DNA from: Butyricimonas paravirosa
GTDB taxonomy: Bacteria > Bacteroidota > Bacteroidia > Bacteroidales > Marinifilaceae
DNA length: 32,000 bases
Direction of reading: 5' to 3'
Assembly (NCBI RefSeq): GCF_032878955.1
Contig: NZ_CP043839.1
Span: 4,473,185-4,505,184 of the forward strand
The notes beneath the pieces are model-generated. The model was not told the DNA's origin. It searched no databases and was given only the letters and a program-made list of their open reading frames with translations. The translations under genes were made by a program, and so were the position numbers. This document shows positions 15,668 to 31,360 of this stretch, piece by piece (the stretch's first letter is position 1; every line of letters begins with the position of its first letter).

Positions 15668-17959
15668 ATGAGAAAAATATATAGAATAGCAAGAACGGAA
15701 TTGCAAACCTTGTTCTATTCCCCTATAGCCTGGTTAATTCTTATCGTGTTCACTTTTCAGACCTGTATGGTTTTCGTACAGGAAATGGAAGGATATGTAA
15801 GGTCTCAAGCCCTTGGTTATGGGGTGTATAGTGTTACTTCCCGTCTATATGCAAGCTGGACGGGTGTATTCTCGAATGTACAGAATTACCTGTATCTTTA
15901 TATGCCATTGCTGACTATGGGGTTGATGAGCCGGGAGTTGAGCAGTGGTTCGATTAAATTGTTGTATTCTTCTCCAGTCACGAGTTGGCAGATTATTCTG
16001 GGAAAATATCTGGCTATGGTGATTTATGGTTTGGTATTGATCGGCATATTATGTGTGATGGTTATCTTTAACCTATTCACGATAGAGAATATGGATTGCG
16101 GACTGGTCTTTACCGGATTGCTGGGAATATACTTGTTGATCTGTGCTTATGCGGCCATCGGGTTATTCATGTCTTGTTTGACTTCCTATCAAGTGGTTGC
16201 TGCTATCGGTACTTTAGCCTTGTTGGCTGCTTTGAATTTCGTGGGAGGAATGTGGCAAGGTGTAGATTTGATTCGCGATATCACGTATTGGCTCTCTATT
16301 TCCGGACGTGCGGATGAGTTGATTGCCGGATTGATTTGTAGTGAAGATATTTTGTACTTTATTATCGTTATCGCTGTATTCTTAGGTTTCTGTATCATTA
16401 AGTTGCAATCAGGTAAGCAACGGACGACTTGGTATATGGTGTTTAGCAAGTATGTAGGAGTATTTATTGTTGCAATTTTCTTGGGTTATCTCAGTTCTCG
16501 GCCGATGCTGAAATTCTTCCATGATTCTACTGCTAATAAAATAAAAACGTTGACTAAAAGTAGTCAAGATATCATGAGCCAGATGACAGGTGATTTGACA
16601 ATAACAACGTACGTGAATCTGTTTGAGGACAATTGCTGGTCAGGTTTACCAATCAGTAGAAATGGAGATATTGGTCGTTTTGCTCAATATATCCGTTTTA
16701 AACCGGATATTAAAATGAAGTACGTGTATTACTATGATAGAACTTATAATCACGCTGCATTACAACAACGTTATCCGGGATTAAGTGACGAAGAGATCGT
16801 GGAAAAATTGTGCGAAACGATGAGTCTGAATCCCAAGATGTTTATGAAACCGGAAGAATTTCATAAGATTATTGATTTATCAGATGAGTATAATCGTTTT
16901 ATTCGAGTGTTAGAAAGAGAGAGTGGGGAAAAGACATTTTTGAGAGTGTACGAGGATAATCAAAAACATCCACATGAACGGGAAATCTCTGCAGCAATGA
17001 AACGTTTGGTGATGGATTTACCGAAAGTTGGTTTCGTGCAAGGACATGGTATGCGTGATATAGGGAAAACGGGTGATTTGGATTATTACAATTTTGCTCA
17101 TAATAAGATATTCCGTTATTCTCTGTTGAATCAAGGTTTTGATGTGACTTCACTGACGTTAGATCAAGATGTACCGGAGGATATTAATGTATTGGTTATT
17201 GCCGAGATGAAAACTCCATTCTCAGCTGAAGAAATGGAACGTTTAAACAAGTATATAGAACGAGGTGGTAATTTGTTAGTTGCAGGAGATGCTGAAAGAC
17301 AGGAAATTATGAATCCAGTGATCGCTCCGTTTGGTGTGAAATTCTTACCTGGTCGTTTGGTGCAATCAAGTGAACATGTTGCTAATTTAATTGTGGGGAA
17401 TGTGACGAGGGAAAGTTGTAGCTTGAATTATATGTTTAGTGATATGTTCCGTCTCTATAGTGTGACAATGCCGGATGCAGTTGCTTTGGAATGTGATACA
17501 ACGAAAGGATTTATTTTAACACCTCTTTTAGTAACCCCAAATAAGGGTAGCTGGATTGAATATAAAACAACTGATTTTATAGATGATAAAGTAGAATTGA
17601 ATCCAGAAGATGGAGAAGTGGAACAGGCGAATTTAACTGCAGTAGCTTTGAATCGGAAAGTTGGGAATAAAGATCAGAAAATAATTATTTTGGGAGATGC
17701 TGATTGTATTAGTAATGGGGAAATTAGTCGCCAGAGATCAAATATTGTGGCTTCTAACTACTCTTTTATCAATGCTATGTTTTTTTGGTTCTCGGATAAT
17801 GAGGTGCCTATTGATGTTCGTCGTCAACAAGCAGAAGATAATAGTGTGAGTTTGAGTATGGATGCGATGGCTGTTGCGAAAGTTGGATTCTTGGGTGTGT
17901 TGCCGATATTACTGTTAATTTGTAGTGTATTTATTTGGGTGAGAAGAAGAGGAAAATAG
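15668..17959 (+). CDS. Fused ABC-2 permease (GldF-like, ~6 TM) + GldG-like auxiliary periplasmic domain with C-terminal TM anchor
   Basis: 763 aa. The N-terminal ~250 aa are multi-pass hydrophobic. A large soluble region follows (DLTITTYVNLF..., GFVQGHGMRDIGKTGDLDYYNF, NVLVIAEMKTPF, IIILGDADCISNGE). The protein ends in the helix VGFLGVLPILLLICSVFIWVRRRGK. Its start is 11 nt after the ATPase stop. Confidence 0.75.
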   Translation: MRKIYRIARTELQTLFYSPIAWLILIVFTFQTCMVFVQEMEGYVRSQALGYGVYSVTSRLYASWTGVFSNVQNYLYLYMPLLTMGLMSRELSSGSIKLLYSSPVTSWQIILGKYLAMVIYGLVLIGILCVMVIFNLFTIENMDCGLVFTGLLGIYLLICAYAAIGLFMSCLTSYQVVAAIGTLALLAALNFVGGMWQGVDLIRDITYWLSISGRADELIAGLICSEDILYFIIVIAVFLGFCIIKLQSGKQRTTWYMVFSKYVGVFIVAIFLGYLSSRPMLKFFHDSTANKIKTLTKSSQDIMSQMTGDLTITTYVNLFEDNCWSGLPISRNGDIGRFAQYIRFKPDIKMKYVYYYDRTYNHAALQQRYPGLSDEEIVEKLCETMSLNPKMFMKPEEFHKIIDLSDEYNRFIRVLERESGEKTFLRVYEDNQKHPHEREISAAMKRLVMDLPKVGFVQGHGMRDIGKTGDLDYYNFAHNKIFRYSLLNQGFDVTSLTLDQDVPEDINVLVIAEMKTPFSAEEMERLNKYIERGGNLLVAGDAERQEIMNPVIAPFGVKFLPGRLVQSSEHVANLIVGNVTRESCSLNYMFSDMFRLYSVTMPDAVALECDTTKGFILTPLLVTPNKGSWIEYKTTDFIDDKVELNPEDGEVEQANLTAVALNRKVGNKDQKIIILGDADCISNGEISRQRSNIVASNYSFINAMFFWFSDNEVPIDVRRQQAEDNSVSLSMDAMAVAKVGFLGVLPILLLICSVFIWVRRRGK

Positions 17960-17984
17960 GGATAAATATTTAAATATATGTAAG

Positions 17985-18017
17985 GTTCATCCGGTAATAT
18001 TAAATTACCGGATGAAC
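17985..18017. terminator. Bidirectional intrinsic terminator hairpin between convergent genes
   Basis: GTTCATCCGGTAAT (17985-17998), a 5-nt loop, then ATTACCGGATGAAC (18004-18017): a perfect 14-bp stem. It is followed by TTTTG on the + strand and by an A/T-rich stretch on the - strand. The right arm overlaps the last codons of the dehydrogenase gene. Confidence 0.65.
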
Positions 18018-19049
18018 TTTTGTTATCGCAACCTTGATCACTCCGTCAAGTTTGTTTTCGAATATGCGATAGGCTTCTTCAATTTCGTTTAATGGAAAAC
18101 GGTGTGTGATGAGTGGGGTAGTATCAATTTTGCCCTCTTCTATCAGGTGAAGAATTTCGGCACAATCGCAACCATCTACACCGCCGGTTTTGAACGTGAG
18201 ATTTTTGCCATACATATTGGGTAACGGCAAAAGTTGCGGTTTGTCGTAGAGGGCAACTACGGTTACAATGGCGTTGGGACGGGCACATTCCCATGCAAGA
18301 TGGAAGGAATCATCGCTTCCGGCTACTTCTAGTACCACGTCGGCTCCGCCATGATCGCTGTGCTCAAGGACGAATTTTTTGCATTTTTCCGGTTCGGTTA
18401 TCAATACATCGGGATAGTGTTCCCGAACAAACTGAATCCTTTCGGGGGATTTTTCACAGACAATAATTCGCTTCGGATTCTTCAACATCGCACAAAGTAG
18501 CGTGCATATTCCGGTTGGTCCGGCACCAATGATCAATACAGTATCGTCTTCCGTGATTTCAGAAATACGTGCAGCCCAAAAGCCGGTGGCAAGTACGTCA
18601 CCCACGAAAAGAGCTTGTTCGTCACTAACCATATCGGGAATACGGTTTAGTCCGCTATCGGCATAGGGGACACATACATATTCGGCTTGTCCCCCGTCAA
18701 TGCGGCATCCCAAAGCCCAGCCGCCATGGGGATCAGTACAATTGTTTACGAATCCTTTTTGGCAAAAGAAGCACTCTCCGCAAAAGGTTTCCACGTTAAC
18801 GGTGACTCGGTCTCCGGGCTTTACGGTCGTCACGTCAGCTCCTGTTTGTTCTACAATACCCACCATTTCATGCCCGACGGTAATTCCTGGTACAGCACGG
18901 GGGACACTTCCGTGTTTGATATGTAAATCGCTGGTGCAGATGCTGCCTAATGTGACACGCACGATAGCATCTCGTGAATCTTCTATCTTGGGGAGCGGCT
19001 TCTCTTGAAGCTTGAAATTTTCCTTGCTGATGTAGGTGTATGCTAACAT
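18000..19049 (-). CDS. Zn-dependent alcohol dehydrogenase (medium-chain dehydrogenase/reductase family)
   Basis: 349 aa. The catalytic Zn motifs are GSICTSDLHI and GHEMVGIVEQTG, the structural Zn Cys cluster is CGECFFCQKGFVNNC, and the Rossmann motif is IIGAGPTG. Confidence 0.9.
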   Translation of the reverse strand: MLAYTYISKENFKLQEKPLPKIEDSRDAIVRVTLGSICTSDLHIKHGSVPRAVPGITVGHEMVGIVEQTGADVTTVKPGDRVTVNVETFCGECFFCQKGFVNNCTDPHGGWALGCRIDGGQAEYVCVPYADSGLNRIPDMVSDEQALFVGDVLATGFWAARISEITEDDTVLIIGAGPTGICTLLCAMLKNPKRIIVCEKSPERIQFVREHYPDVLITEPEKCKKFVLEHSDHGGADVVLEVAGSDDSFHLAWECARPNAIVTVVALYDKPQLLPLPNMYGKNLTFKTGGVDGCDCAEILHLIEEGKIDTTPLITHRFPLNEIEEAYRIFENKLDGVIKVAITKVHPVI

Positions 19050-19168
19050 AGGGGCGTAGATATATATTTAAATATTGCAATTAATAAAAAGCGTTTTTTA
19101 TCGGGTTTCAAATATAAGGTATAAATCTCAAAAGAGAACTTCGAGAGTTCTGAATTAGGAGAAAAAAG

Positions 19169-19188
19169 CTAGTTTTATCTAGTTTTAT
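19169..19188 (+). promoter_or_regulatory. Perfect tandem 10-bp direct repeat (CTAGTTTTAT x2) upstream of abiEi; possible operator
   Basis: CTAGTTTTATCTAGTTTTAT was read directly at 19169-19188, ~48 nt before the abiEi ATG. The near-consensus -7-like word TATATTTA follows just downstream. AbiEi antitoxins are known autorepressors that bind repeats in their promoters. The operator role here is inference only. Confidence 0.3.
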
Positions 19189-19235
19189 TTCTGAAATGCA
19201 TTATATTTACAGCATAATGGAAACAAAATAAAAGA

Positions 19236-19853
19236 ATGACCTTTTTAGAATTTAAGAATCAACTATTCGATTTAGCATGTTTCAATATCTATCAGGTATA
19301 TGCATGGCAACCGGATTTTGACCGCAATAATCTTACCCGTTGGGTGAAAAAAGGGTATCTTGTCCGTTTACGGCAAGGATATTTTGCTTTTTCTGAATAC
19401 AAGAGTAAGCTGGATTATTCCCTTTATTTTGCTAATCGGATTTACCGGCCCTCTTATATTAGTCTACATACAGCATTAGCGTTTTACGGGATGATACCGG
19501 AAGCAGTAGTGCAAATTACCAGTGTGACATCACTAAAAACTGTCTCATTTAATAACGACTTTGGTGAATACTCCTATAAAAATCTCAAAGAGAATCTAAT
19601 GTTCGGGTATGAATTAAAGCCAGTGGCAGATAATCGTACCATGCAGTTTGCTACACCTGAAAAAGCATTGCTTGATTTACTGTATCTTTATCCATTTTAT
19701 GATAACGAGCAGGAATTAGAGGAGTTGCGTTTGGATGAAGATTATCTACATGATGATTTAAATAAGGATTTATTGATGGACTATTGTGGCAAGTTTCAAA
19801 ACAAGGCACTTGACCGTCGGATAAAATTACTTTTTAAGACTTATGATTTATGA
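19236..19853 (+). CDS. abiEi: AbiEi-family antitoxin / transcriptional regulator (type IV TA, abortive infection)
   Basis: 205 aa. The N-terminal wHTH-like segment is LTRWVKKGYLVRLRQGYFAF. There is a 4-nt ATGA overlap with the downstream AbiEii nucleotidyltransferase gene. Confidence 0.75.
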   Translation: MTFLEFKNQLFDLACFNIYQVYAWQPDFDRNNLTRWVKKGYLVRLRQGYFAFSEYKSKLDYSLYFANRIYRPSYISLHTALAFYGMIPEAVVQITSVTSLKTVSFNNDFGEYSYKNLKENLMFGYELKPVADNRTMQFATPEKALLDLLYLYPFYDNEQELEELRLDEDYLHDDLNKDLLMDYCGKFQNKALDRRIKLLFKTYDL

Positions 19854-20638
19854 TACAAATAGAGCAGATAAGAAATTATTTTCCAGTTCAGATTCGTGGA
19901 AATTCAAGTTTCGATAAGTATATGTTGAAAGAGTATTTGCAGTTGATGATTTTAGATTACCTTTCTTCTACTCCAACCATTCAAAAGATGGTTTTTATCG
20001 GGGGAACAAACCTGCGTTTAGTCAAAGGGATCGATCGGTTCTCCGAAGACCTGGATTTTGATTGTAAAGAATTATCGAAAGAAGAGTTTGTTGAAATGAC
20101 AAATGGGGTAATCCGGTTTTTGGAGCGTTCAGGGTTAAGGGTCGAAGCGAAAGATAAAGAAAATCCGAAGTTAACAGCATTTAGGCGTAATATCTATTTC
20201 CCGGAACTCTTGTTCGATTTAGGATTGAATGGACACAAGGAAGAACGTTTTTTAATAAAGGTCGGGAGCCAAGATCAACAAGTTAATTATTCCCCGGTTG
20301 TTACAAATATCAAGGAGTGTGGATTCTTTTTTCCGTTTCCCGTTCCTTCTGATGGTGTATTATGCAGTATGAAAATTGCAGCTATGTTAGCTCGTGCTAA
20401 AGGTCGTGATTTTTATGACCTGATGTTTTTGCTTTCACAAGCAAAAACGGATTACAATTATCTATCACAACGTTGTGGAATACATAATTTGCAAGAATTT
20501 AAGCAAGTGACGGTCGAATTGCTAAAAACAGTTGATTTGAAGGAGAAACAAAAGGATTTTGAACATTTACTTTTCAACAAAGTGAATAGTGAGAAGATCT
20601 TAAGATTTGGGGAATTTGTGGATTCTCTGACAGAATAA
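19850..20638 (+). CDS. abiEii: AbiEii/AbiGii-family nucleotidyltransferase toxin (DUF1814)
   Basis: 262 aa. The Pol-beta-type NTase motif is FIGGTNLRLVKGIDRFSEDLDFD (GG-x-R.SEDLDF), with a C-terminal RDFYDL motif. It is translationally coupled to abiEi. Confidence 0.85.
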   Translation: MIQIEQIRNYFPVQIRGNSSFDKYMLKEYLQLMILDYLSSTPTIQKMVFIGGTNLRLVKGIDRFSEDLDFDCKELSKEEFVEMTNGVIRFLERSGLRVEAKDKENPKLTAFRRNIYFPELLFDLGLNGHKEERFLIKVGSQDQQVNYSPVVTNIKECGFFFPFPVPSDGVLCSMKIAAMLARAKGRDFYDLMFLLSQAKTDYNYLSQRCGIHNLQEFKQVTVELLKTVDLKEKQKDFEHLLFNKVNSEKILRFGEFVDSLTE

Positions 20639-20717
20639 TTATGTGAGGATGATATTTGCCTGTTTTATTATTTTATGTATATTAGCATGGCGTAATTTCT
20701 AAAGATATAGTTATAGT

Positions 20718-21803
20718 ATGGAAATTCCTTCATCAAAGGTTTTGACCACCAATTGTTTGAGTCGGGTATTTAATTCGACAGTAGCTACTTATAAATATTA
20801 TTGGTTTATTTCTATTTTAGAGATATATGTGGGGACGGAAACTTCACGGATAAAGCTTTGGGATATTATTATTTCGATGATTGCTAATGCATGGTATCCG
20901 GTTCATTATTTTCGTCTTTCGTTTGGGAAAAATGATTCGATGTATGGGGCAATTAAACAGCTCCAAGTGTTGGCCGGAATACCAATAGATGCAAATAAAA
21001 AAGATATTGTAGATGCTTTAAGGAAAGAATTGCATCGCAAAGAAATTAAGTCGTTGTTACGTGTTTTCACGTTGAATGTCCCTTTTCGATTTCTTCGCCC
21101 GTGGATAGATACATCTGATGATAAACAGATGGTTGTACGTTCTCAGGCATTTGAAAATGTTTGTTTGTATGCCTTGAAAAAAGAGGAAAATGAATGGTGG
21201 ATTGAGATAAATCCTGCTTGGAGTGATTATTTGAAGGAGAATTACCGGATATTGATGGATTTTGCTTATTGGAATCTTACATTGTTTTTGCAAACTCGTA
21301 ATCCCAATGTACCTAATATCCCTAATAAATTAATTAAACCAGAATACCGGGATTCACTTACAAGGCAGCGTATGTTTTGGAATACAGTGATTCAGACAAA
21401 TGGACAATTAACGTGTATTTATACGGGACGAGAATTGCATGTGGGAAATTATGATTTAGATCATTTTATCCCATGGAGTTTTGTTTCTCACGATTTATTG
21501 TGGAATCTATTACCTGCTGATCCAAGTATTAATTCATCGAAGAGTAACAAATTACCATTATTAGATGTTTATCTCCCCGGATTGGCAAATGCTCACCATA
21601 GGGCTTTGTGTACTTATATAACATTGGATAAAAACAAGATGGTGTTAGAAGATTACTTGTCATTGGGGCATACTCCAAATGAATTAGCAAATATGAATGA
21701 CGTTCATTTTTATGAGATTTTTTATCAGACATTTTCTCCAATGGTTCAAATTGCTATGAATATGGGATTTGAGTTATGGAATTATACATTTAATTATGAA
21801 TAA
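20718..21803 (+). CDS. HNH (beta-beta-alpha-Me) endonuclease with a ~230-aa unassigned N-terminal domain
   Basis: 361 aa. The Cas9/McrA-like HNH core at aa ~233-280 (nt ~21414-21557) reads CIYTGRELHVGNYDLDHFIPWSFVSHDLLWNLLPADPSINSSKSNK. I do not recognise the N-terminal region (LSRVFNSTVATYKYYWFISILE...). Confidence 0.8.
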   Translation: MEIPSSKVLTTNCLSRVFNSTVATYKYYWFISILEIYVGTETSRIKLWDIIISMIANAWYPVHYFRLSFGKNDSMYGAIKQLQVLAGIPIDANKKDIVDALRKELHRKEIKSLLRVFTLNVPFRFLRPWIDTSDDKQMVVRSQAFENVCLYALKKEENEWWIEINPAWSDYLKENYRILMDFAYWNLTLFLQTRNPNVPNIPNKLIKPEYRDSLTRQRMFWNTVIQTNGQLTCIYTGRELHVGNYDLDHFIPWSFVSHDLLWNLLPADPSINSSKSNKLPLLDVYLPGLANAHHRALCTYITLDKNKMVLEDYLSLGHTPNELANMNDVHFYEIFYQTFSPMVQIAMNMGFELWNYTFNYE

Positions 21804-22182
21804 AACGATTGTTGAATGTCCTTTTTGTAATTTAAAAAAGGAAATCGAGATTATTTCTGAAACTGAAAGTTGTATTGCTTTTTATGATGGTTTCCCTGTG
21901 AATCCGGGGCATGCGTTGATAATTCCTAAACGTCATGTGTCTAATTATTTTGAACTTACTCGTGATGAAGTTCTGGAAATGCAAGAGATGTTGTGGTATG
22001 TAAAGAAGGTTATAGATGAACGTTATCATCCGGATGGGTATAATATTGGGGTCAATGTAAACGAGTCTGCAGGACAGTCTATATTTCATGTACATATGCA
22101 TCTTATTCCAAGATATAAGGGGGATATGGAGAATCCGAAGGGGGGAGTCCGTGGGGTGATTCCTTGTAAGCAAAAATATTGA
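21796..22182 (+). CDS. HIT-family (histidine triad) nucleotide hydrolase/transferase
   Basis: 128 aa from ATG 21796; the ORF track offers an earlier ATG at 21769. The N-terminus has ECPFCNL, the triad is SIFHVHMHLIPR and the tail is GGVRGVIP. ATG 21796 overlaps the HNH stop (21801-21803) by 8 nt. Confidence 0.88.
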   Translation: MNKTIVECPFCNLKKEIEIISETESCIAFYDGFPVNPGHALIIPKRHVSNYFELTRDEVLEMQEMLWYVKKVIDERYHPDGYNIGVNVNESAGQSIFHVHMHLIPRYKGDMENPKGGVRGVIPCKQKY

Positions 22183-22598
22183 ATTAGTCTTGATTGTAAT
22201 TTAGGGTAGATTATTGTTAGCAGGAATTCAGAGGATACGATCAAAACGAAATCACGCAAAAGAGTTATAAAGTTATCCCTTGTTTCATAGATAACTAAGG
22301 TTGGACTATCCTTTCCCTTGATTATTGGCGTAACATGAATATAGTATGAACATAGCATATACACTTGTCTATGTTTATGATTTGTTAATGGTGTGTTGGC
22401 ACTCCCTTGGTATCCTTATCTAACGGTAAAGAAAGGTTTCACAAGATATGTCTCATATAATCTCCGAATTTACGGAAGATCCCATTTTGAAGCTTTAAAT
22501 ATATGCTTTCTAGATGTAGAGTTGTAATATGTTGTAGCGGTGTAAATGTAAAAAAAGCTATGTTGTATGATTATTGACTGTTAATTTGTGAAGTGATA

Positions 22599-22629
22599 TT
22601 TGTTTATTGTAAAAATGTTTATATATTTG
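22599..22629 (+). promoter_or_regulatory. Bacteroides-type sigma-A promoter (-33 TTTG / -7 TAnnTTTG)
   Basis: TTTG lies at 22599-22602, followed by a 19-nt spacer and TATATTTG at 22622-22629. This places a start site at about 22634-22637, exactly where the long closing helix of the structured element begins. Confidence 0.5.
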
Positions 22630-22633
22630 TAAT

Positions 22634-22793
22634 GCGTAACATACTCAAGGGTAGGGAATCCTGCCACTGCATAGCAGGCATTTTTTATGCCTGTTATCTC
22701 CATACGGCGGTTCCGAACCCCCGTGATGGAGTGTGTAATGCACCCACAGCCCTTGAGGTGTTACGCAGCGGGACAGGCGGAACCGTTTTTTTT
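22634..22793 (+). ncRNA. Unassigned ~160-nt structured RNA (sRNA or riboswitch-like leader) ending in U8
   Basis: Closing helix: GCGTAACA-ta-CTCAAGGG (22634-22651) pairs with CCCTTGAG-g-TGTTACGC (22750-22766). Internal competing hairpins: CCTGC(22660-64)/GCAGG(22674-78) versus CAGGCA(22675-80)/TGCCTG(22688-93). Extended hairpin at 22698-22731: CTCCAT-ACGG-c-GGTT-ccg-AACC-c-CCGT-g-ATGGAG. Its apex CGGTTCCG (22708-15) is complementary to CGGAACCG (22778-85), which directly abuts T8 (22786-93). Confidence 0.5.
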
Positions 22794-23147
22794 CGTCCTA
22801 ATCTTTAAACAAAAAGGCTTATGAGGGTAAATCGTGATCATATTTTTGTGAGGGGAATTGCTGATCTGCTTTCCATATTTCTTTGATTTTACTATTGATT
22901 TGTAATTAGGTCGGCTAGGAGAGTATTCGAAGTTAGGAATGTTTTGATCTTTATATCTTTTGATCAGTTTTGTAAAATCTTTATCTTGTATGGTAAAGGT
23001 AGGGATGGGTATGTCAAATTGTTACGAAATGTAAATTGTGAAAGAAGAAACAGAAAAATAAAAGAGGGGTGTATTCTATGCCTGAGAAACGTTGAATATC
23101 ACCCCCTTGTGTAAATCAATTTTATCAATTAATTAACAATCAAAGTT

Positions 23148-26100
23148 ATGAAAAAAACTTATGACAGGAAAGTTTTTAAGCGAAAGTTACTGTCGGATCG
23201 AAGGACGGTAACCGTGACAATCCGGTTATTTATGATTTTATTGTTGGGCTTCCCGCTATTGACGAGGGCCGGGACGGTGGATTCCACTCGTGTAGCGAAT
23301 CGGGAGGTGAGGGGAAAGGTGGTGGACGAGAAGAAGCTGCCGATACCGGGAGTCTCGGTGCGTCTGGGAGGAACGTCGATGGGAACGGCCACTGATGTTG
23401 ATGGGAAGTTCAAGTTGTTGATCCCGGCTGACACGGCCACGCTGGTAGTTTCCTTTATCGGGATGAAGACCGAGATCGTGAAGATTCCCCGGCTGAAAAC
23501 GGGTGCGGAACAAAAGGAGTTGACGATCGTGTTGCGGGAAGAGGACGTGAAACTGGAAGACGTGGTGGTGACGGGTATCTTCACCCGTAAGAAGGAAAGT
23601 TTCACGGGATCGGCTTCCACTTACTCGGCTGCCGAGTTGAAAACGATGGGTACGCAGAACGTGTTACAAAGCTTGAAGACTTTGGACCCGGCTTTCGCCA
23701 TTATCGAGGATAACCAGTTCGGTTCTGACCCGAATCGCTTGCCGAACATGGAAATCCGGGGAAAGTCGAGCATGTTGGGATTGCGGGACGAGCTGGATGC
23801 CGACCCGAACCAGCCATTGTTTATCCTGGATGGTTTCGAGTCTACGTTGGCAGCGATTAATGATCTGGATATAAACCGGGTGGCCTCGATCACGATCTTG
23901 AAAGATGCGGCATCGACGGCAATTTACGGTTCGAAGGCGGCTAACGGGGTGATCGTGGTAGAAACGGTGAAACCGGAAGCGGGGAAGTTACAGGTGAGCT
24001 ACAACGGGAACATGAATCTCTCGATACCCGATTTGTCGAGTTATAACTTGATGAATTCAAGGGAAAAACTGGAATTTGAATTATTGGCAGGAAGGTACGA
24101 CCCGGCGAATTGGTCGACAGCGAACGAAGTGGAAATGAATCGGTTGTATAACGAGAAATTGAAGGAAATCGAGAGCGGTGTAAACACGTACTGGCTGGCA
24201 GAACCTTTACGGGTAGGGGTGAACCAGAAACACTCGCTCTATGTGCAGGGCGGTGAAGGAAACTTCCTGTTTGGTTTAGGTGCGGGATATAACGGGATAA
24301 CCGGGGTTATGGAGAAGTCTGATAGGGAGGTGCTTAGCGGTAATATTGATTTGATTTACCGGATGTCGAAATTTCAGTTCTCCAATAAATTCTCGTTGAC
24401 TTCAACTGATTACAAGAACCCGATCGTGGCTTTCAGCGCGTATGCCGCGGCGAATCCTTATTACAGAAAGTATAACGAGGATGGAACCGTGGATAAATGG
24501 TTGGAGAATAACAAATTTTTCAAGGCGGCTAACCCGTTGTGGAATGCCCGACAGAATAGTCGGGACGAGGGGAAAAATCTCTCTATTAGTAATTATTTCA
24601 TGGCGGAGTATTTCCCCACCGTGGAATGGCGGGTACGTGCCCGGTTAGGGCTGACTTACGGGAATGACGACACGGAAAAGTTCTATTCCCGGAATGATAC
24701 CCGTTACGAGAATGTGGAAACGATCAAGAAAGGGGAATATCGTTCAACGAATACCAGAAAAAATCAAGTGGAGGCGGAATTGAGTGTCACGTATGCCAAG
24801 ATGTTGGGGAGACACCGGATTAACTTGGTGGCCGGGGGAAATATTTCCAGTAACAAGTCGTTAACGCAGGGATATTCAGCATTAGGATTCCCGGAGGGTA
24901 ATTTTTCTTATCCCTCATTCTCGAACGGTTACCCGGAAAATGGCACGCCGACATACTACGAGACGGTGTCCCGCTCGGTGAACGGTTATTTCAACGCGGG
25001 GTACTCTTTTGACGATCGTTATTTGATGGATTTCAGTTTGCGGACAAGCGGGTCTTCGGTTTTTGGAACCTCCCGAAAGTATAACACGACGTGGTCGGTC
25101 GGGTTAGGCTGGAACTTGCACAAGGAGAAGTTTATCATGGATCACGTGGAATGGATTAACATATTGAAACTGCGGGCCTCTATCGGTAATCCCGGAAACC
25201 AGAGTTTTGACTCGGCGCAATCCTTGTTGACTTATTCTTTCCAGTACGGTTCGATGAACTATTTCGGGCTGGGTGCCGTGTTGTCACAAATCGGTAATCC
25301 CGATTTGGAATGGCAGATCACGGTCGATAAAAATATTGGTCTCGACGTGACGTTGTTTAACAAGCGTTTCTCGCTGACGGCGGATTATTATTACAAGGTG
25401 ACCGACCCGTTGTTGATCAAGGTAAGTACGCCGCTTTCTTCCGGAACGCCGACTTACATGACGAATGCGGGAGAACAGGTGTCACAGGGATTGACGGCAT
25501 CGGTGTCTTATTATATTTTCCAAGATTTTGAGAAACGTTTCTCGTGGATGATACGGGCGAACGTGCGAACTCAGAAAACCCGGATTGACAAGATCGGGAA
25601 CAAGCTCTCCACGTTGAACGCCAGTGGAAAGGGAGAAAACACGGTGAGGTATTATGACGGGGCAGACCCGGATGATATTTGGGCGGTGAAGTCCGCGGGG
25701 ATTGATCCCTCGAACGGGAAGGAGTTGTTCTATGCCAAGGATGGTAGCTACACGTACGATTTCTCGTATGATGACGAGGTGATTTGCGGGAACACCCGTC
25801 CCGACGTGGAAGGTGTGATCGGGACCTCGCTCAACTGGAAGGGATTTTCCGTGAGTTTGAATTTCCGTTACCAGATGGGTGCGGACGTGTTCAACGAGGC
25901 CCTTTATAGTAAGGTGGAAAATATTTCAAGGAGTGATTTGAACAAGAATCAGGATAAGCGGGCGTTGTACGAACGTTGGCAGGAAGTGGGGGACATCGTG
26001 CGTTTCAAGGATATTGCCAGTGCGGAGACGACCCCGATGTCTTCCCGTTTCGTGCAGACAGAGAACGTGTTGACCTTGGAGTCTCTCTATCTGGGGTACG

Positions 26101-26258
26101 AGTTTTACAACGGGTGGATCGAGAAACTTGGCTTGAGTAGCCTGAAACTACAATTCTCCATGCGTGACGTGTTCCGGGCATCGACAATCCGGTCTGAAAG
26201 AGGAATATCTTATCCTTTTGCCCGGAGTATGGAGGCAGGACTTTCGTTTAATTTTTAA
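23148..26258 (+). CDS. SusC/RagA-family TonB-dependent transporter (no STN domain)
   Basis: 1036 aa. The carboxypeptidase-regulatory-like segment is VRGKVVDEKKLPIPGVSVRLGGT...FIGMKTEIV and the plug motif is ITILKDAASTAIYGSKAANGVIVVETV. It shares NTYWL..PLR and LKLRASIGNPGN motifs with the first SusC, and it ends in terminal F. Confidence 0.95.
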   Translation: MKKTYDRKVFKRKLLSDRRTVTVTIRLFMILLLGFPLLTRAGTVDSTRVANREVRGKVVDEKKLPIPGVSVRLGGTSMGTATDVDGKFKLLIPADTATLVVSFIGMKTEIVKIPRLKTGAEQKELTIVLREEDVKLEDVVVTGIFTRKKESFTGSASTYSAAELKTMGTQNVLQSLKTLDPAFAIIEDNQFGSDPNRLPNMEIRGKSSMLGLRDELDADPNQPLFILDGFESTLAAINDLDINRVASITILKDAASTAIYGSKAANGVIVVETVKPEAGKLQVSYNGNMNLSIPDLSSYNLMNSREKLEFELLAGRYDPANWSTANEVEMNRLYNEKLKEIESGVNTYWLAEPLRVGVNQKHSLYVQGGEGNFLFGLGAGYNGITGVMEKSDREVLSGNIDLIYRMSKFQFSNKFSLTSTDYKNPIVAFSAYAAANPYYRKYNEDGTVDKWLENNKFFKAANPLWNARQNSRDEGKNLSISNYFMAEYFPTVEWRVRARLGLTYGNDDTEKFYSRNDTRYENVETIKKGEYRSTNTRKNQVEAELSVTYAKMLGRHRINLVAGGNISSNKSLTQGYSALGFPEGNFSYPSFSNGYPENGTPTYYETVSRSVNGYFNAGYSFDDRYLMDFSLRTSGSSVFGTSRKYNTTWSVGLGWNLHKEKFIMDHVEWINILKLRASIGNPGNQSFDSAQSLLTYSFQYGSMNYFGLGAVLSQIGNPDLEWQITVDKNIGLDVTLFNKRFSLTADYYYKVTDPLLIKVSTPLSSGTPTYMTNAGEQVSQGLTASVSYYIFQDFEKRFSWMIRANVRTQKTRIDKIGNKLSTLNASGKGENTVRYYDGADPDDIWAVKSAGIDPSNGKELFYAKDGSYTYDFSYDDEVICGNTRPDVEGVIGTSLNWKGFSVSLNFRYQMGADVFNEALYSKVENISRSDLNKNQDKRALYERWQEVGDIVRFKDIASAETTPMSSRFVQTENVLTLESLYLGYEFYNGWIEKLGLSSLKLQFSMRDVFRASTIRSERGISYPFARSMEAGLSFNF

Positions 26259-26264
26259 AGAAGA

Positions 26265-27746
26265 ATGGTTATGAAATTATGGAATATCATTTGGATCGGG
26301 GTCATGCTCGTGTGTGGTGCCGGGTGTTCGAGCTTTCTGGACGTGCAACCCAAGGACAAGCAGTCGGAGAAACAATTATTCGCTACGAGAGGCGGATTCT
26401 ACACGGCGGTAAACGGGATATATAACAAGGTGGCCTCCACGGCTCTTTACGGGAAAAATCTTTCCTACGAGTTGGTGGACGTGATTTCGAAACGCTACCT
26501 GCCTCTCTCTGTGAACACGTACTTGACCGCGTTAAGTACCTTTGCTTACACGGGTGAAGAGGTCGAGAAAGAGTTGGAGAACACGTGGACGACGGCTTAC
26601 AACACGGTGTTGAATTGCAACGTGTTGCTGGAGAATCTTGAAGAGAGCGAAGGCGTGTTGCAGGGGCAGGAGTATCGCGTGCTGAAAGGCGAGATGCTGG
26701 CCGTTCGAGCTTTCCTGCACTTTGATATGTTGCGTTTGTTCGGTCCGGTTTACAAGCTCCACCCGGAGGCGGCATCCATTCCCTACAACGAATCGTCGAA
26801 AGTGGCGGCCCTGCCGTTAATGACGGCCGATTCTGTGTTACACGAGAAAATATTGCGGGATCTGGATGAGGCCGAGAAGTTACTGGCGGATAGTGACCCG
26901 GTGATCGAGAACGGGCCGATGGCCTCTCTCGGGGAAGACGAGGAAGTTTACCTGCGCTATCGCCAGTTGCGGATGAATTATTACGCCGTGTTGGCATTGA
27001 AGGCGAGGGTGTACCTGTACGCGGGAGAACAGGCGAACGCGCTGGCTGCTGCCCGGAAACTGTTGACGGACCCGAAAGTGGATGAATATTTCCCGGCGGT
27101 GGACCCGAATAAACTGCTGGCCAACCAGAGCAATCCCGACCGGGTATTCTCCACGGAAGTACTGACGGGAATTTATAAAAAGGACCGAAAGGAGATTTAT
27201 ACCCGTTATTTCAGCTCGGAGCAGGCGGGAAATAATCTCCTGCATCCCCGGAAAGATTTCGTGGGAACGAGCCTTTTTGCCGGAGAGACACAGGATTATC
27301 GATTCCAGACGTGGTGGCAGGTAGCATCCGGCGTGGGTGAGAGCGGTCACGTGATGATTAAATACAAGGAGATAGACCAACCTGACGGGACGGCGGGATC
27401 AGAGTATTTCTACGCTGTTTTCATGTCGTTGATCCGGTTGAGCGAAGTATATTACATCGCGGCGGAGAGCGAGCCCCTGTTGGCGGACAAGTATGGTTGG
27501 CTGAACCGGGTTCGAGCCCGGAGAGGGTTACCCGACGCGCCTGTCGTTTCAGAGGATGATTTCATGAAGCGGTTGCGTTCGGAGTACGTGCGGGAGTTTA
27601 TCGGCGAGGGGCAAATCTTTTTCATGTATAAACGGCTGTATATAAATATCAATAGTTACGAGAACGGGTATGATACCAATACTTACGGGGCCCGGGAAGA
27701 ACGCTACGTGCTACCGGTGCCTTCCAAGGAAATTGCTAATCGTTAA
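26265..27746 (+). CDS. SusD/RagB-family lipoprotein
   Basis: The lipoprotein signal is MLVCGAGC. SusD motifs are MLAVRAFLHFDMLRLFGP, RMNYYAVLALKARVY and FIGEGQIFFMYKR. It starts 6 nt after the SusC stop. Confidence 0.9.
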   Translation: MVMKLWNIIWIGVMLVCGAGCSSFLDVQPKDKQSEKQLFATRGGFYTAVNGIYNKVASTALYGKNLSYELVDVISKRYLPLSVNTYLTALSTFAYTGEEVEKELENTWTTAYNTVLNCNVLLENLEESEGVLQGQEYRVLKGEMLAVRAFLHFDMLRLFGPVYKLHPEAASIPYNESSKVAALPLMTADSVLHEKILRDLDEAEKLLADSDPVIENGPMASLGEDEEVYLRYRQLRMNYYAVLALKARVYLYAGEQANALAAARKLLTDPKVDEYFPAVDPNKLLANQSNPDRVFSTEVLTGIYKKDRKEIYTRYFSSEQAGNNLLHPRKDFVGTSLFAGETQDYRFQTWWQVASGVGESGHVMIKYKEIDQPDGTAGSEYFYAVFMSLIRLSEVYYIAAESEPLLADKYGWLNRVRARRGLPDAPVVSEDDFMKRLRSEYVREFIGEGQIFFMYKRLYININSYENGYDTNTYGAREERYVLPVPSKEIANR

Positions 27747-27758
27747 AATGACAAGGTT

Positions 27759-28592
27759 ATGAAATGGAAAAATATTTTATTGATCGTGGGACTGGGTTTT
27801 GTCGCAAGTGCTTGTGAAAAACAGGATAGCTCGATTTTTACCACAGATGATGCCGGGATTTATTTTCAAATGGTGACGATGTCTATTTACGGGACGACCA
27901 CGGAATATTACACGGATTCGCTCTCTTCTTCCTTCGCGTCTGTTCGAGCCTCGGCGAAGAGTGCGGTGCTTGCCGCTACGGTTCGGACGATGGGTAAAGT
28001 GGCTGACTATGATCGTCCTTTCAAGGTAGTCGTGGATAAAGAAGGTTCGACGGCTGTTGAAGGCGAGCATTACGAGATCGACCTGGACACGCTGGTTGTT
28101 CGTGCGGGGGAGAGTTCCGCGAGAGTGCGTGTACGTTTTTTTCGCACGGCAGACTTGATGAAAAGAACGATACGGTTGGTTCTCCGGCTGGAAGATAACG
28201 AATATTTTAAGTGTTATTTTCCGGAGTACAAGAACACGAATGCGTACTCGTCCACGGGGGTGATGATTCACGGGAATCTGTTTGCCTTTTCGGTGAGCGA
28301 GATGTACACGGAACCGGGCTACTGGACGGATTTCGGGACAGAATTTTTCGGGAATTGGACACCTGAAAAGTATGTCGTGGTTAACTCGGTTTGTGGGTTG
28401 ACTCCCACGGATTGGAGTGGTGCTGGGTATGCCGGGGCGAAGGTGCAATACGGACGGTTTAATTTTTTCGCTCTCGCCGTGCAGAAATATTTGCAGGAAC
28501 AGGCGGATGCCGGAACCCCGGAACTGGACTCTGACGGGGAATATATGCAACTTGACCCGTCCTACTCGGTCGATTACTCCCGGTATGAATAA
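27759..28592 (+). CDS. DUF4843-like PUL accessory lipoprotein
   Basis: 277 aa with lipobox GFVASAC. It has the same position and size as the gene at 5879, and shared features such as Y(Y/F)..(G/E)..W(W/T)D and PxKY(E/V)(I/V). Confidence 0.6.
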   Translation: MKWKNILLIVGLGFVASACEKQDSSIFTTDDAGIYFQMVTMSIYGTTTEYYTDSLSSSFASVRASAKSAVLAATVRTMGKVADYDRPFKVVVDKEGSTAVEGEHYEIDLDTLVVRAGESSARVRVRFFRTADLMKRTIRLVLRLEDNEYFKCYFPEYKNTNAYSSTGVMIHGNLFAFSVSEMYTEPGYWTDFGTEFFGNWTPEKYVVVNSVCGLTPTDWSGAGYAGAKVQYGRFNFFALAVQKYLQEQADAGTPELDSDGEYMQLDPSYSVDYSRYE

Positions 28593-28609
28593 TATTAAAA
28601 CGAGATGTT

Positions 28610-30220
28610 ATGAAAATGAATTATATTATATTGTTTTTACTTGTTGTTTCTCTTTGTGCTTGCTTTGATGACAAGGGAAATTACGATTACCATGAGGTGG
28701 CGGAAATAACCATTGAGAATGTTCCGGAGGTGATTGAGGTGCTGGGAAATTCCGATCATATCATCGTGAATCCTAAGGTGGTTTCTTCACTGGAAGGAGA
28801 GATCGGGACGGGGAACACCAATTTCGAGTTTAGTTACAAGATTGAGAAAAAATCCGGGGGAACGATCGTGCTTAACCAAAATTGGGTAAACCTGAATCCT
28901 GCCGGGACGTTGAACTTGGACACGTTGGCCGCTTTTTCCGCTGATACGTATATCGGTTGGTTTGCCGTGACGGACAAACGCTCCGGCATACAGACGTCCG
29001 CAACGTTCGATATAAGGGTTTCGTCCCCCACTTACGAGGGATGGATGATACTTTGTGAGGAGGGAGAGAACGCAAGAGTGCGGATGGATATGATTTCCGT
29101 GATCTCGGCCGAGCGGATTATACCGGCTTATGACTTGTTGGCACCCTTGGGGTTACCGGAATCGAAGGGGGCAAAGGGAATCGCATTCTACCCGAACCGG
29201 TATTATAGTCCCAACGACCTGATCTACGTGATGACGGGCGAGGGGGCGTATAAACTGGATCGGGAAACGTTCAAGACGGATAAATCATGGGAGATCGGGT
29301 TTGTCGATTTTATCCTTCCCCCGGAAGGAGAGTATGTCGTACGCTATGAGACGGTAAATAACGCGAGTAACGCGGGTGCGTTGGCCTGCCTTTGCGTGAC
29401 GGATGCCGGAAATGCCTACGCACAGGTACTGGATTATGGTGGGGCCGCTTTCGAGTACCCGATCAACACGTCGGAACGAGGGAAAGCTCCGGAGTACCGG
29501 GTAGCCCCGTACGTGGGTGTGAGCATGGCCCGCTTGGGTAACGGGAAAACGGCTCTGTTTTATGACATGGACAACAAGCGTTTCATGGGATGGAAGTATG
29601 GTTATGTTGCCGATGCCATGCAAACTTTGACTCCCGTGGCTGACCCGGAGAACAGTTTGTTCAGTTTCAAGACGGGGATGGAGCTGGTGTATATGGAGAG
29701 TACCCGTTATTCCAATGGTTTGGTATACTCCGTTTTGCAGGATGCCGGAGGAAAGCGTTGTATTTACGGGATCAATATGTCGAATAACGGTTTCGTACAG
29801 GAGGCGAAGTACGAGAATTTGAATGCACCCGATTTTGACAAGGCGACGATTTTTGCTTTCCATTCTCAATTCCCTTATATGTTCTATGCCGTGGGGAATA
29901 AGGTGTATTTGCATAATTTAGGAACAAACACGACTTACCCGATGAATAATATTGCTTTAGGGGAAAACGAGACTGTTACGATGTTGAAATTTAACCTGTA
30001 CAGGCAATGTTCGTTAAGCGATCTGAATAATCAGTCCGACGAGTTTATGGCTCGGCAGTATGAGTTGATGGTGGGTTCGTATAATACGGCGGCTCCGGAT
30101 AACAATGGCGGGAAGCTAGGGTTCTACCCGGTGGATGGGGTGAATAATAGTGTGACGAAAAGGGCGGAATACAGTGGTTTTGCAAAGATAAAGGATGTCG
30201 TGTATCGTGAGCGGCGATAA
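28610..30220 (+). CDS. PKD-like family surface lipoprotein (PUL accessory)
   Basis: 536 aa with lipobox SLCAC followed by FDDKGNYDYHEV. It is a paralogue of the gene at 6613, with the same order and size. Shared blocks include Y.GW(L/M)IL.E. Confidence 0.6.
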   Translation: MKMNYIILFLLVVSLCACFDDKGNYDYHEVAEITIENVPEVIEVLGNSDHIIVNPKVVSSLEGEIGTGNTNFEFSYKIEKKSGGTIVLNQNWVNLNPAGTLNLDTLAAFSADTYIGWFAVTDKRSGIQTSATFDIRVSSPTYEGWMILCEEGENARVRMDMISVISAERIIPAYDLLAPLGLPESKGAKGIAFYPNRYYSPNDLIYVMTGEGAYKLDRETFKTDKSWEIGFVDFILPPEGEYVVRYETVNNASNAGALACLCVTDAGNAYAQVLDYGGAAFEYPINTSERGKAPEYRVAPYVGVSMARLGNGKTALFYDMDNKRFMGWKYGYVADAMQTLTPVADPENSLFSFKTGMELVYMESTRYSNGLVYSVLQDAGGKRCIYGINMSNNGFVQEAKYENLNAPDFDKATIFAFHSQFPYMFYAVGNKVYLHNLGTNTTYPMNNIALGENETVTMLKFNLYRQCSLSDLNNQSDEFMARQYELMVGSYNTAAPDNNGGKLGFYPVDGVNNSVTKRAEYSGFAKIKDVVYRERR

Positions 30221-30250
30221 CGTGATAGAGAAAAAGTGTTAGAAGTCTTG

Positions 30251-30358
30251 TTTTAAATGACTACCCCCTCCAACTCCCCCTTACACAGGGGAAGGGATGA
30301 TTACCAAGCGGTTCCCCCTCCTGTGTAAGGAGGGGTTAGGGGAGGTAGTTGTTTAAAA
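30251..30358. repeat. ~108-bp imperfect palindromic element rich in C5/G5 tracts (REP/MITE-like; probable terminator of the cassette)
   Basis: The left arm is TTTTAAAtgACTACCCCCTCCAACTCCCCCTTACACAGGGG. The reverse complement of the right arm is TTTTAAAcaACTACCTCCCCTAACCCCTCCTTACACAGGAGG. The arms are roughly four-fifths identical with a perfect TTACACAGG core. The element begins 31 nt after the PKD-like gene stop and has TTTAAA at both ends. Confidence 0.6.
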
Positions 30359-30455
30359 GATGATTTCTTTTCCTTTTGATAAATTCTCTTTTTACTCTTT
30401 GTTATGCGTGAGATCGGTCTACGGCTAAAGAGTGGGAAGAGATCTCCGCGAGGAT

Positions 30456-30581
30456 GGGGGGAAATAAGGGCATACAGATTTCAGATAGGCGTGTCCCCGT
30501 CGGTGTAAAGACGTTCAAGGGGAGCGATTATCGAACGAGGACGAAACGTCTGTGATCTGTGCGTGTGGCCTTATTTCCCCC
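30456..30581. repeat. Long-range inverted repeat enclosing nested stems (unassigned structured element)
   Basis: GGGGGAAATAAGG (30457-30469) pairs perfectly with CCTTATTTCCCCC (30569-30581). ACAGAT (30474-79) pairs with ATCTGT (30555-60). Inner stems are AGACGTT (30510-16)/AACGTCT (30544-50) and TCCCC (30494-98)/GGGGA (30519-23). Confidence 0.45.
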
Positions 30582-30761
30582 TGATCTGTTTTGTAATCGG
30601 GAATGTGATGTAAATAAAATGTGATGGAAGGGGAATTTGTTTTTTGTGGAAAGAAGGTTTGTTGAATAAGATTATGATTAAAATAAAAATATTTATCTTT
30701 GAACTGGACATGAGGAAAAAAGGATCGATGCAAAAAGTATGGATCAAATTGAAAGATTATA

Positions 30762-31292
30762 GTGGATAAAGAAAAGAGGGACACGTTTGAGTTATTGTAT
30801 AAAACTCATTATAAAGAGTTGTATATTCATGCTTTAAGCTTTGTTCGGGATGAAGAAGAAGCAAAAGACATCGTGACGGATGTTTATGAATACGTGTGGA
30901 AGAATTTTGAAAAATTGGATTCTTCGGTTTCTCTGCGTCCCTTTTTATATTCACTGGTTCGTTCCCGTTCTCTTGATTTTTTGAGGAAGGAAAAAACAAA
31001 AGAAAAGTTTTTGGCTTATAAAAAGACCTTTCCCGAAGAGGAGGAGGAATACGTGGAGTATGAGCAACTCATCGAAAAGGTGATGCATATTATTGAGAAT
31101 ATGCCCCAACAGACAGCTACTGTGTTCAAAAAATGTTTTATCGAGCGGAAAAAATATCAAGAGGCGGGGGATGAGTTGGGAATTTCTATTAACACGGTTC
31201 GTTGGCATATAACGAAGGCAATCAGTATATTAAGGGGACAAATGTCTGATGTCGAAATGATATTGTTATATGCGTTTTTCTTAAAAAAATAA
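30762..31292 (+). CDS. ECF (sigma-70 family, group IV) RNA polymerase sigma factor
   Basis: 176 aa from a GTG start. The region 2-like segment is YKELYIHALSFVRDEEEAKDIVTDVYEYVW and the region 4 HTH is YQEAGDELGISINTVRWHITKAISILR. A TATCTTTG (-7-like) word lies at 30694-30701. A FecR gene follows. Confidence 0.85.
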   Translation: MDKEKRDTFELLYKTHYKELYIHALSFVRDEEEAKDIVTDVYEYVWKNFEKLDSSVSLRPFLYSLVRSRSLDFLRKEKTKEKFLAYKKTFPEEEEEYVEYEQLIEKVMHIIENMPQQTATVFKKCFIERKKYQEAGDELGISINTVRWHITKAISILRGQMSDVEMILLYAFFLKK

Positions 31293-31360
31293 AAAATATT
31301 GTTTTTTGACCCACATCATTTACCATGCTTTACGTGTAATAGTAAAATGAACGTGAAGTT

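Follow-up and report, generated by a model that had tools for sequence, protein, structure and literature searches.

What is an HNH nuclease gene doing when it is translationally coupled to a gene for a HIT protein and lies directly behind an AbiE cassette? This question is raised by a 32,000-nucleotide (nt) stretch of the Butyricimonas paravirosa genome (RefSeq assembly GCF_032878955.1, contig NZ_CP043839.1, positions 4,473,185 to 4,505,184 of the forward strand; hereafter the window), for which the initial annotation had proposed an undescribed two-gene defence or toxin-immunity module. We find that the pair is a real, conserved and unnamed two-gene module in gut Bacteroidales. We further consider, with moderate confidence, that it represents a self-contained nuclease module of defence islands that is derived from Ssp phosphorothioate systems, with the HNH protein as its effector and the HIT protein, with or without a methyltransferase, as its accessory enzyme.

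The gene structure given in the initial annotation holds. Open reading frames (ORFs) and Pfam agree on a 361-amino-acid (aa) HNH protein whose stop codon overlaps the start of a 128-aa HIT protein by 8 nt, with HNH_4 assigned to residues 233-280 of the former (E 1.2e-11) and HIT to nearly the whole of the latter (E 5.6e-25), which contains both CPFC and FHVHMHLIP. A DH motif, downstream Asn ligands and alignments with Cas9 HNH domains place the nuclease among the HNH or His-Me finger proteins. That the pair belongs to no named system, as had been supposed, is confirmed by PADLOC v2, Pfam and NCBIfam, which name a system for neither protein; the scans of both returned only Cas9 HNH-motif matches, a weak PDC-M01B match (E 3e-3) and a generic ThsC match. 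No description of an HNH and HIT module was found in the literature searched.

The neighbourhood survey covered 109 classified loci (25 from genomes and 80 from metagenomes, these 105 being mostly of Bacteroidales, three viral ones and the window), partner classes being called by tblastn, and the counts refer to the 97 loci whose downstream sequence was long enough. In 91 of these, a partner gene adjoins the HNH gene or overlaps it, its start typically lying between -20 and +6 nt from the HNH stop, and a partner containing HIT, either alone or as methyltransferase-HIT, is found directly downstream in 85, which bears out the predicted conservation of the adjacency. Methyltransferase and HIT both follow the HNH gene at 69 of the 97 loci, HIT alone at 16 (including the window and locus L029), methyltransferase alone at six and neither at six; HIT is thus absent or swapped for the unrelated methyltransferase domain in 12/97 loci, with the HNH residues intact. 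The majority partner is a single polypeptide of 260-390 aa in which a class-I S-adenosylmethionine (SAM) methyltransferase (Methyltransf_23/25/11/12) is fused to HIT. The same pairings recur among homologues at 27-38% identity, with a methyltransferase partner in a Francisella plasmid and in P0136 and methyltransferase-HIT in P0158, and a Nostoc homologue pairs with an AAA ATPase and a DUF4276 protein. In a neighbour-joining tree of the nucleases, HIT-only forms fall into at least five separate clades and methyltransferase-only forms into two, all of them nested among methyltransferase-HIT forms. Therefore, the window pair is a reduced variant, with the methyltransferase domain lost, of a widespread Bacteroidota operon of HNH and methyltransferase-HIT. 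The proposal of an HNH and HIT module accordingly stands as regards a conserved, coupled pair in variable, defence-rich surroundings, but the stand-alone HIT is the derived form and methyltransferase-HIT the prevalent one.

Some methyltransferase-HIT partners reach 360-390 aa, with approximately 100 extra residues C-terminal of HIT (Table), and one of these gives a weak HTH_10 match (E 0.09). Locus L111 (547-8146) carries a Cas1 gene, a gene for a 1,274-aa Cas12f-like protein, two tandem HNH paralogues, both at about 40% identity to the window protein, and a gene for a HIT protein of 123 aa.

The nuclease family is large and conserved over its full length. A word-indexed search collected 2,821 clusters at 90% identity, mostly from gut and rumen Bacteroidales, and an exhaustive search of clusters at 50% identity gave 2,159 at E<=1e-3 and 528 at E<=1e-30. 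The members are named merely 'HNH endonuclease domain-containing protein', and the best genome match to the window nuclease comes from Butyricimonas (90%). Y25, K26, G70, N195, K204, P252, N263 and K275 are invariant family columns and D248 and H249 nearly so, the four positions D248, H249, N263 and N272 all being invariant or nearly invariant; Y25, K26, G70, N195, K204, D248, H249, N263, N272 and K275 are kept in every partner class. AlphaFold2, run on a 115-sequence alignment, models the whole nuclease with a predicted local distance difference test score of 96.9, with the same score for residues 1-225 modelled alone, and places a beta-beta-alpha element at residues 239-275. A Foldseek search of the PDB with the C-terminal part returns Cas9 HNH domains only, below the significance line (best E 0.036), and a profile search of PDB sequences with the nuclease likewise returns Cas9 HNH only.

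The N-terminal part is a different matter. That its approximately 230 residues could not be placed is corroborated, since residues 1-230 have no matches in Pfam, NCBIfam or PADLOC and Foldseek against the PDB gives a best E of 0.27, with a faint ORC/Cdc6 and MarR winged-helix resemblance. A search of the viral structure library with the nuclease model gave no matches, fold similarity to SRA, EVE or PUA readers was not found, and hhalign detected no relationship of the HNH family to SspB/DUF4007 or to the Synechocystis TIGR04096 protein (probability 0.2). Within the C-terminal region of superfamily 2 (SF2) helicases of 1,180-1,250 aa (ResIII and Helicase_C; Table) lies a segment with 27% identity to residues 14-198 of the HNH protein. 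Because it is also fused to these helicases, the N-terminal domain can be regarded as a portable module, plausibly for DNA binding or sensing. A selfish or homing endonuclease context was considered and rejected, since the N-terminal domain of 225 aa is conserved and neither an intron nor an intein is seen around the gene.

The link to phosphorothioation comes from more distant relatives. The immediate neighbourhoods of 12 distinct plasmid-borne homologues at 27-36% identity were checked, and in seven of them ssp genes lie around or beside the HNH gene. The order is sspB, a split sspC, HNH and sspD in Cyanobacterium HL-69 and Geminocystis; HNH, an opposite-strand sspA and then sspB-sspC-sspD in Hymenobacter; HNH, sspA and a TIGR04096 protein in Synechococcus NIES-970; sspC, HNH and sspA in Leptolyngbya; HNH and then sspB in Annamia; and sspB, a truncated sspC, a LAGLIDADG insertion, HNH, sspA, an AAA ATPase, a DUF4276 protein and a 690-aa TIGR04096 protein on Synechocystis pSYSM. 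A metagenomic homologue at 34% identity (L115) shows the order sspD-HNH-methyltransferase. PADLOC confirms the Ssp neighbours (SspB 3.5e-119, SspC down to E 0, SspD 2e-114 and SspA 2e-142; overall 1e-92 to 0), and its Ssp and Dnd models do not match the HNH protein, be it that of the window or a cyanobacterial homologue. By gene order and profile matches, the nuclease family thus belongs to the Ssp neighbourhood without being a named Ssp or Dnd component, and we contend that it is probably an undescribed companion of Ssp-type phosphorothioation, which in cyanobacteria and other phyla lies where a restriction partner would be expected. Whether the gene would turn out to be a standard restriction-modification or Dnd/Ssp component, a possibility raised at the outset, receives a divided answer: relatives reside in SspABCD operons and the partner methyltransferase is related to TIGR04096, but the protein itself corresponds to no named component.

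The Synechocystis PCC 6803 locus (L116, pSYSM 17880-30168) encodes an HNH homologue of 458 aa with an extra N-terminal HTH_3. Its ssp cluster is decayed, being interrupted by the LAGLIDADG endonuclease and several toxin-antitoxin pairs, with the TIGR04096 protein about 5 kb off; the host is a model cyanobacterium and experimentally tractable.

Among Bacteroidales, loci L013, L016, L092 and L108 carry sspB-sspC, an AAA_21 ATPase, a small unassigned protein, HNH and methyltransferase-HIT, while L083 has sspB with a partial sspC and L107 has sspB downstream. Neither sspD nor sspA was found within 10 kb of any of these six loci, and because of this, L013, L016, L092, L108 and L083 are to be seen as an Ssp-like cluster without the sulfur-insertion enzymes.

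HIT enzymes hydrolyse or transfer nucleoside monophosphates, with phosphoramidates, anhydrides and adenylated DNA as substrates; Hint-type members can desulfurate nucleoside 5'-phosphorothioates, and an adenylated DNA intermediate has been proposed for phosphorothioate synthesis. The window HIT protein falls within the superfamily, PDB HIT proteins matching it at E 1e-20, and its nearest solved structures are uncharacterised HIT proteins, the Mycobacterium Ap4A phosphorylase and Fhit; it is a generic member of the Hint/Fhit branch. The catalytic triad is intact and conserved across the family, and the match to PADLOC ThsC (E 2.4e-11) is confined to the generic HIT core. A consensus built from 61 methyltransferase-HIT proteins (ILDFGCGxG ... 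FDTIxCNYVLNVLEP) shows class-I motifs of the small-molecule kind only, and in the approximately 150 residues of the methyltransferase domain a DPPY/NPPY motif IV, PCQ and a target-recognition domain were all not found, so that the partner does not qualify as a classical restriction-modification DNA methyltransferase. PDB matches of the domain are weak and to generic methyltransferases only. The partner methyltransferase domains match NCBIfam TIGR04096 at E ~1e-17 and ~55-63 bits over profile positions 5-97 of 478, below the 150-bit cut-off of that family, and they share 33-39% identity with residues ~185-289 of the TIGR04096 proteins encoded by the cyanobacterial clusters. In the window, the partner lacks a methyltransferase domain.

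For the Ssp-derived nuclease module that we favour, a defence function, DNA as the target and all of the HIT and methyltransferase chemistry are what we infer from these data, and the following sequence of events can be envisaged. The 225-aa N-terminal domain would bind DNA and read its state, upon which the Cas9-like HNH finger (D248/H249/N263/N272) would nick or cut invading DNA. The co-translated HIT protein, joined in most relatives by the small-molecule-type SAM methyltransferase, may serve as an accessory enzyme whose substrate is a nucleotidyl-phosphate or thiophosphate adduct. It could, for instance, strip adenosine monophosphate off an adenylated DNA intermediate, or desulfurate or hydrolyse nucleotides that arise as by-products; the partner would then be neither an antitoxin nor a classical protective DNA methylase. 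A bolder proposal, which we regard as quite improbable, is that methyltransferase-HIT (in the window, HIT by itself) catalyses reactions of a hitherto unknown kind on the DNA backbone or nucleotide adducts, either installing a mark that replaces SspD/SspA sulfur insertion in the sspB-sspC-HNH clusters or erasing or alkylating phosphorothioate or adenylated backbone intermediates of invaders.

Several observations speak against the Ssp-derived module. Searches by tblastn with SspA-D queries found nothing in the 32-kb window, which thus contains no SspABCD locus, and ssp genes were not found beside approximately 90% of the Bacteroidales loci; because of these absences, the phosphorothioate link in Bacteroidales is an extrapolation and uncertain. 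No resemblance of the N-terminal domain to the ScoMcrA sulfur-binding domain, SspB/DUF4007 or a solved fold could be detected. Among the distant homologues, some have other neighbours or occur by themselves in the vicinity of restriction-modification, NERD-helicase or GmrSD genes, and the defence-rich neighbours described below were counted without a background comparison. HIT proteins are also common housekeeping enzymes, and what the HIT protein would do in the module is a matter of conjecture.

Four other explanations have to be weighed against it. In a restriction-modification-like arrangement, the partner would mark host DNA, perhaps with a new backbone or nucleotide-linked mark replacing the SspD/SspA chemistry, and HNH would cut unmarked DNA. 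The methyltransferase is indeed the most frequent partner domain, the genes are as tightly coupled as in restriction-modification operons, and the Bacteroidales clusters that run from sspB-sspC to HNH and methyltransferase-HIT without sspD or sspA look as though methyltransferase-HIT substitutes for sulfur insertion. However, the methyltransferase has been lost at least five times and HIT twice while the catalytic and invariant residues of HNH were all kept, distant HNH homologues without any partner exist, and the methyltransferase domain is short, has small-molecule motifs and lacks the DNA-methylase motifs and the target-recognition domain, which together make this arrangement unlikely. The same evidence bears on a toxin-antitoxin or immunity pair, in which the HNH toxin would be bound and held by HIT and freed on infection. 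Two overlapping, translationally coupled genes beside the AbiE toxin-antitoxin system would suit such a pair, yet the partner is an enzyme with an intact, conserved catalytic triad, the adjacency to AbiE is incidental (see below), and the HNH gene occurs in Ssp operons without a HIT neighbour. HNH moreover shows no decay where HIT is missing or has given way to the unrelated methyltransferase domain, which argues against obligatory co-inheritance. Both explanations are weakened because the partner domains were repeatedly lost or swapped with the nuclease intact; the suggestion in the initial annotation that HIT might be an antitoxin or immunity subunit fits poorly for this reason, and we judge it to be distinctly improbable.

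An enzyme of the modification-dependent type IV kind would use the N-terminal domain to recognise phosphorothioate or otherwise modified invader DNA, cut it with HNH and leave HIT, with or without the methyltransferase, to detoxify the released thio- or modified nucleotides. A reader domain followed by HNH is the layout of ScoMcrA/TagI-type enzymes (PMC10853773), the module is solitary and without modification genes at most Bacteroidales loci, and phosphorothioate-modified DNA is common in the gut community (PMC12914056). Nevertheless, the gene shares an operon with phosphorothioate writers in cyanobacteria, Hymenobacter and L115, which would be suicidal for a phosphorothioate-dependent cutter and weakens the case for one, and the N-terminal fold resembles neither the sulfur-binding domain nor the SRA, EVE or PUA readers; we rate this explanation as improbable, to about the same degree as the restriction-modification one. 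As for a chance adjacency of a housekeeping HIT gene and a selfish or homing HNH gene, HIT and HNH are both very common domains and the window HIT is generic, but the neighbourhood is kept across hosts and contexts in the 85 loci mentioned above, with start/stop overlap, and HIT is joined in one polypeptide to the other domain that recurs as a partner. The neighbourhood survey has effectively refuted this explanation, which we consider scarcely credible.

The surroundings of the pair consist of AbiEi/AbiEii, a dehydrogenase and large ORFs for SusC/SusD-like outer-membrane uptake proteins. As annotated, the pair is AT-rich and directly follows AbiEi/AbiEii, both confirmed by PADLOC (Table); GC content is 33-36% over 19200-22600 as against 46-54% in the dehydrogenase and susC flanks. 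In L001, a Butyricimonas locus, HNH-HIT comes straight after the same dehydrogenase, without AbiE, homology to the window breaking at 19197 and resuming at 20652, so that the AbiE-bearing segment 19198-20651 is absent from an otherwise collinear locus. Since L001 has the pair without AbiE, the cassette is an independent insertion; its adjacency is incidental and the pair forms a separate unit. The earlier view of AbiE as a defence-islet context is therefore only partly sustained: AbiE does adjoin the pair and neighbours are defence-rich elsewhere, but this particular adjacency is incidental. A similar division applies to the proposed own transcription unit, which L001 supports and the promoter word cited for it does not. 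The word in question, GATATTTG, is TAnnTTTG with one mismatch; exact TAnnTTTG words number 27 in the window against 28.5 expected and none lies in the gap, for which reason GATATTTG is not evidence on its own. Sigma-70 and terminator scans gave chance-level results, and the gap upstream of the pair (Table) is nonetheless its probable promoter region.

At locus L030, about 4.3 kb of unrelated DNA lies between HIT and susC. Because of this extra DNA and of the absence of AbiE in L001, the dehydrogenase-susC interval is to be regarded as a variable insertion hotspot. Beyond this locus, the genes on either side differ from one locus to the next (the 615 neighbour ORFs make up 481 clusters), and the pair is probably horizontally mobile. 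The immediate neighbours, taken as the 128 non-redundant genes at most two positions from the module, match 479 PADLOC families (E<=1e-5), among them HerA, MkoA/MkoC, DRT, mad8 and numerous PDC candidates, with E<1e-200 in some cases, which gives qualitative support for its placement in defence islands. Typical phage carriage was considered and rejected, there being only three weak matches in 2.9 million viral contigs.

Locus L029 (a contig of ERZ857951) encodes an HNH protein 100% identical to that of the window and represents the same locus (window 19452-31801); by blastn, the two are about 90% identical in nucleotides over a 12.3-kb alignment, which suggests mosaic divergence across the locus. 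The largest neighbour cluster, seen at six loci, is a 620-715-aa protein with an N-terminus like MPALRFYYSDTIEDFL that recurs beside the module (Table) and was guessed from sequence alone to be DUF2075-like.

Table. Positions of the features discussed, in the window and at the survey loci (L numbers).
Feature	Locus	Position	Strand	Basis or remark
361-aa nuclease gene	Window	20718-21803	+	ORF; stop codon 21801-21803
N-terminal helical domain of the nuclease, without assignable fold	Window	aa 1-225, ~20718-21392	+	
HNH_4 His-Me finger of the nuclease	Window	aa 233-280, ~21414-21557	+	Pfam; C-terminal helical tail after it
128-aa stand-alone HIT gene (Hint/Fhit-like branch)	Window	21796-22182	+	ATG at 21796
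Intergenic region 5' of the pair, probable own promoter region	Window	20639-20717	+	Module boundary ~20652
AbiEi	Window	19236-19853		PADLOC E 7e-97
AbiEii	Window	19850-20638		PADLOC E 5e-119
sspB-sspC-HNH cluster	L013	3884-12228		
sspB-sspC-HNH cluster	L016	2352-10403		
Long methyltransferase-HIT partner	L011	11056-12228		
Long methyltransferase-HIT partner	L013	11056-12228		
Long methyltransferase-HIT partner	L008	1171-2262		
SF2 helicase with N-terminal-domain segment	L027	7409-11152		IMG/VR viral contig
SF2 helicase with N-terminal-domain segment	L028	7610-11161		IMG/VR viral contig
620-715-aa neighbour	L021	7930-9987		
620-715-aa neighbour	L022	11079-12935		
620-715-aa neighbour	L035	12466-14613		
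620-715-aa neighbour	L048	11695-13776		
620-715-aa neighbour	L051			
620-715-aa neighbour	L085			

The nuclease family is very abundant in gut and rumen Bacteroidales and has a confidently folded 225-aa domain that is unmatched in the solved and viral structure libraries searched. About 6-8% of gut isolates, Bacteroidota and Butyricimonas among them, possess phosphorothioate systems (PMC12914056), and because this modification is common among gut microbes, phage-host interactions and plasmid traffic among gut Bacteroidota may be shaped by the module. A 2025 review lists dndFGH/sspFGH, sspE and pbeABCD as the only restriction branches of phosphorothioate-based immunity (PMC12707154), and the placement of the family inside Ssp operons suggests a fourth, undescribed one. 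That the nuclease has its own HIT and methyltransferase partner suggests a nucleotide or backbone chemistry that no named defence system has yet shown, and if the proposed backbone or adduct enzymology were true, HNH with methyltransferase-HIT would constitute a new class of backbone-chemistry-based immunity that is abundant in the human gut. For experiments, the window offers a compact two-gene system.

Comparison with known systems places the module near several of them without equating it to any. With Cas9, the likeness lies in the HNH domain, which is the best sequence and structure match to residues 225-300 and shares the DH...N...N catalytic arrangement; it is a likeness at domain level only, as the window protein has no RuvC, REC or protospacer-adjacent-motif-interacting domain and no guide RNA locus. 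ThsC, the HIT accessory of type II Thoeris (PMC8565338), is likewise a HIT protein co-encoded with an immune effector, but the window locus has neither ThsA nor ThsB and is not a Thoeris system. The type IV enzymes ScoMcrA and SprMcrA, with their sulfur-binding domain, optional SRA and HNH, share an N-terminal DNA or modification reader layout, a C-terminal HNH and an association with phosphorothioate genes. They differ in that the N-terminus of the window nuclease does not detectably resemble the sulfur-binding domain or SRA in sequence or fold, its HNH is a Cas9-like HNH_4 without zinc-binding cysteines, and a dedicated enzyme partner is co-encoded, so that it is not a sulfur-binding-domain HNH endonuclease of the ScoMcrA type. 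The Dnd and BREX analyses of the Aravind laboratory describe wHTH-SRA-HNH and GmrSD-type HNH proteins, not this HNH family, and no HIT partner (PMC10853773, PMC12839542).

There are parallels with the phosphorothioate systems themselves. The partner domain matches TIGR04096, the 'DNA phosphorothioation-associated putative methyltransferase', whose members share the cyanobacterial clusters with HNH, although it is a domain of ~150 aa fused to HIT and not a 690-aa protein, and aligns with ~95 of 478 positions at ~62 against 150 bits. The HNH protein has no homology to the SspF, SspG and SspH models, DUF262 and DUF1524 of SspE were not found in it, so that it is no SspE, and a methyltransferase or HIT partner of HNH is foreign to published Ssp systems. 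Like SspE, however, it combines a sensor-like domain with a terminal nuclease domain of the His-Me type, and, as in SspABCD-SspE and SspABCD-SspFGH, its relatives are encoded within or beside sspA/B/C/D operons, in the position that a restriction partner would be expected to take.

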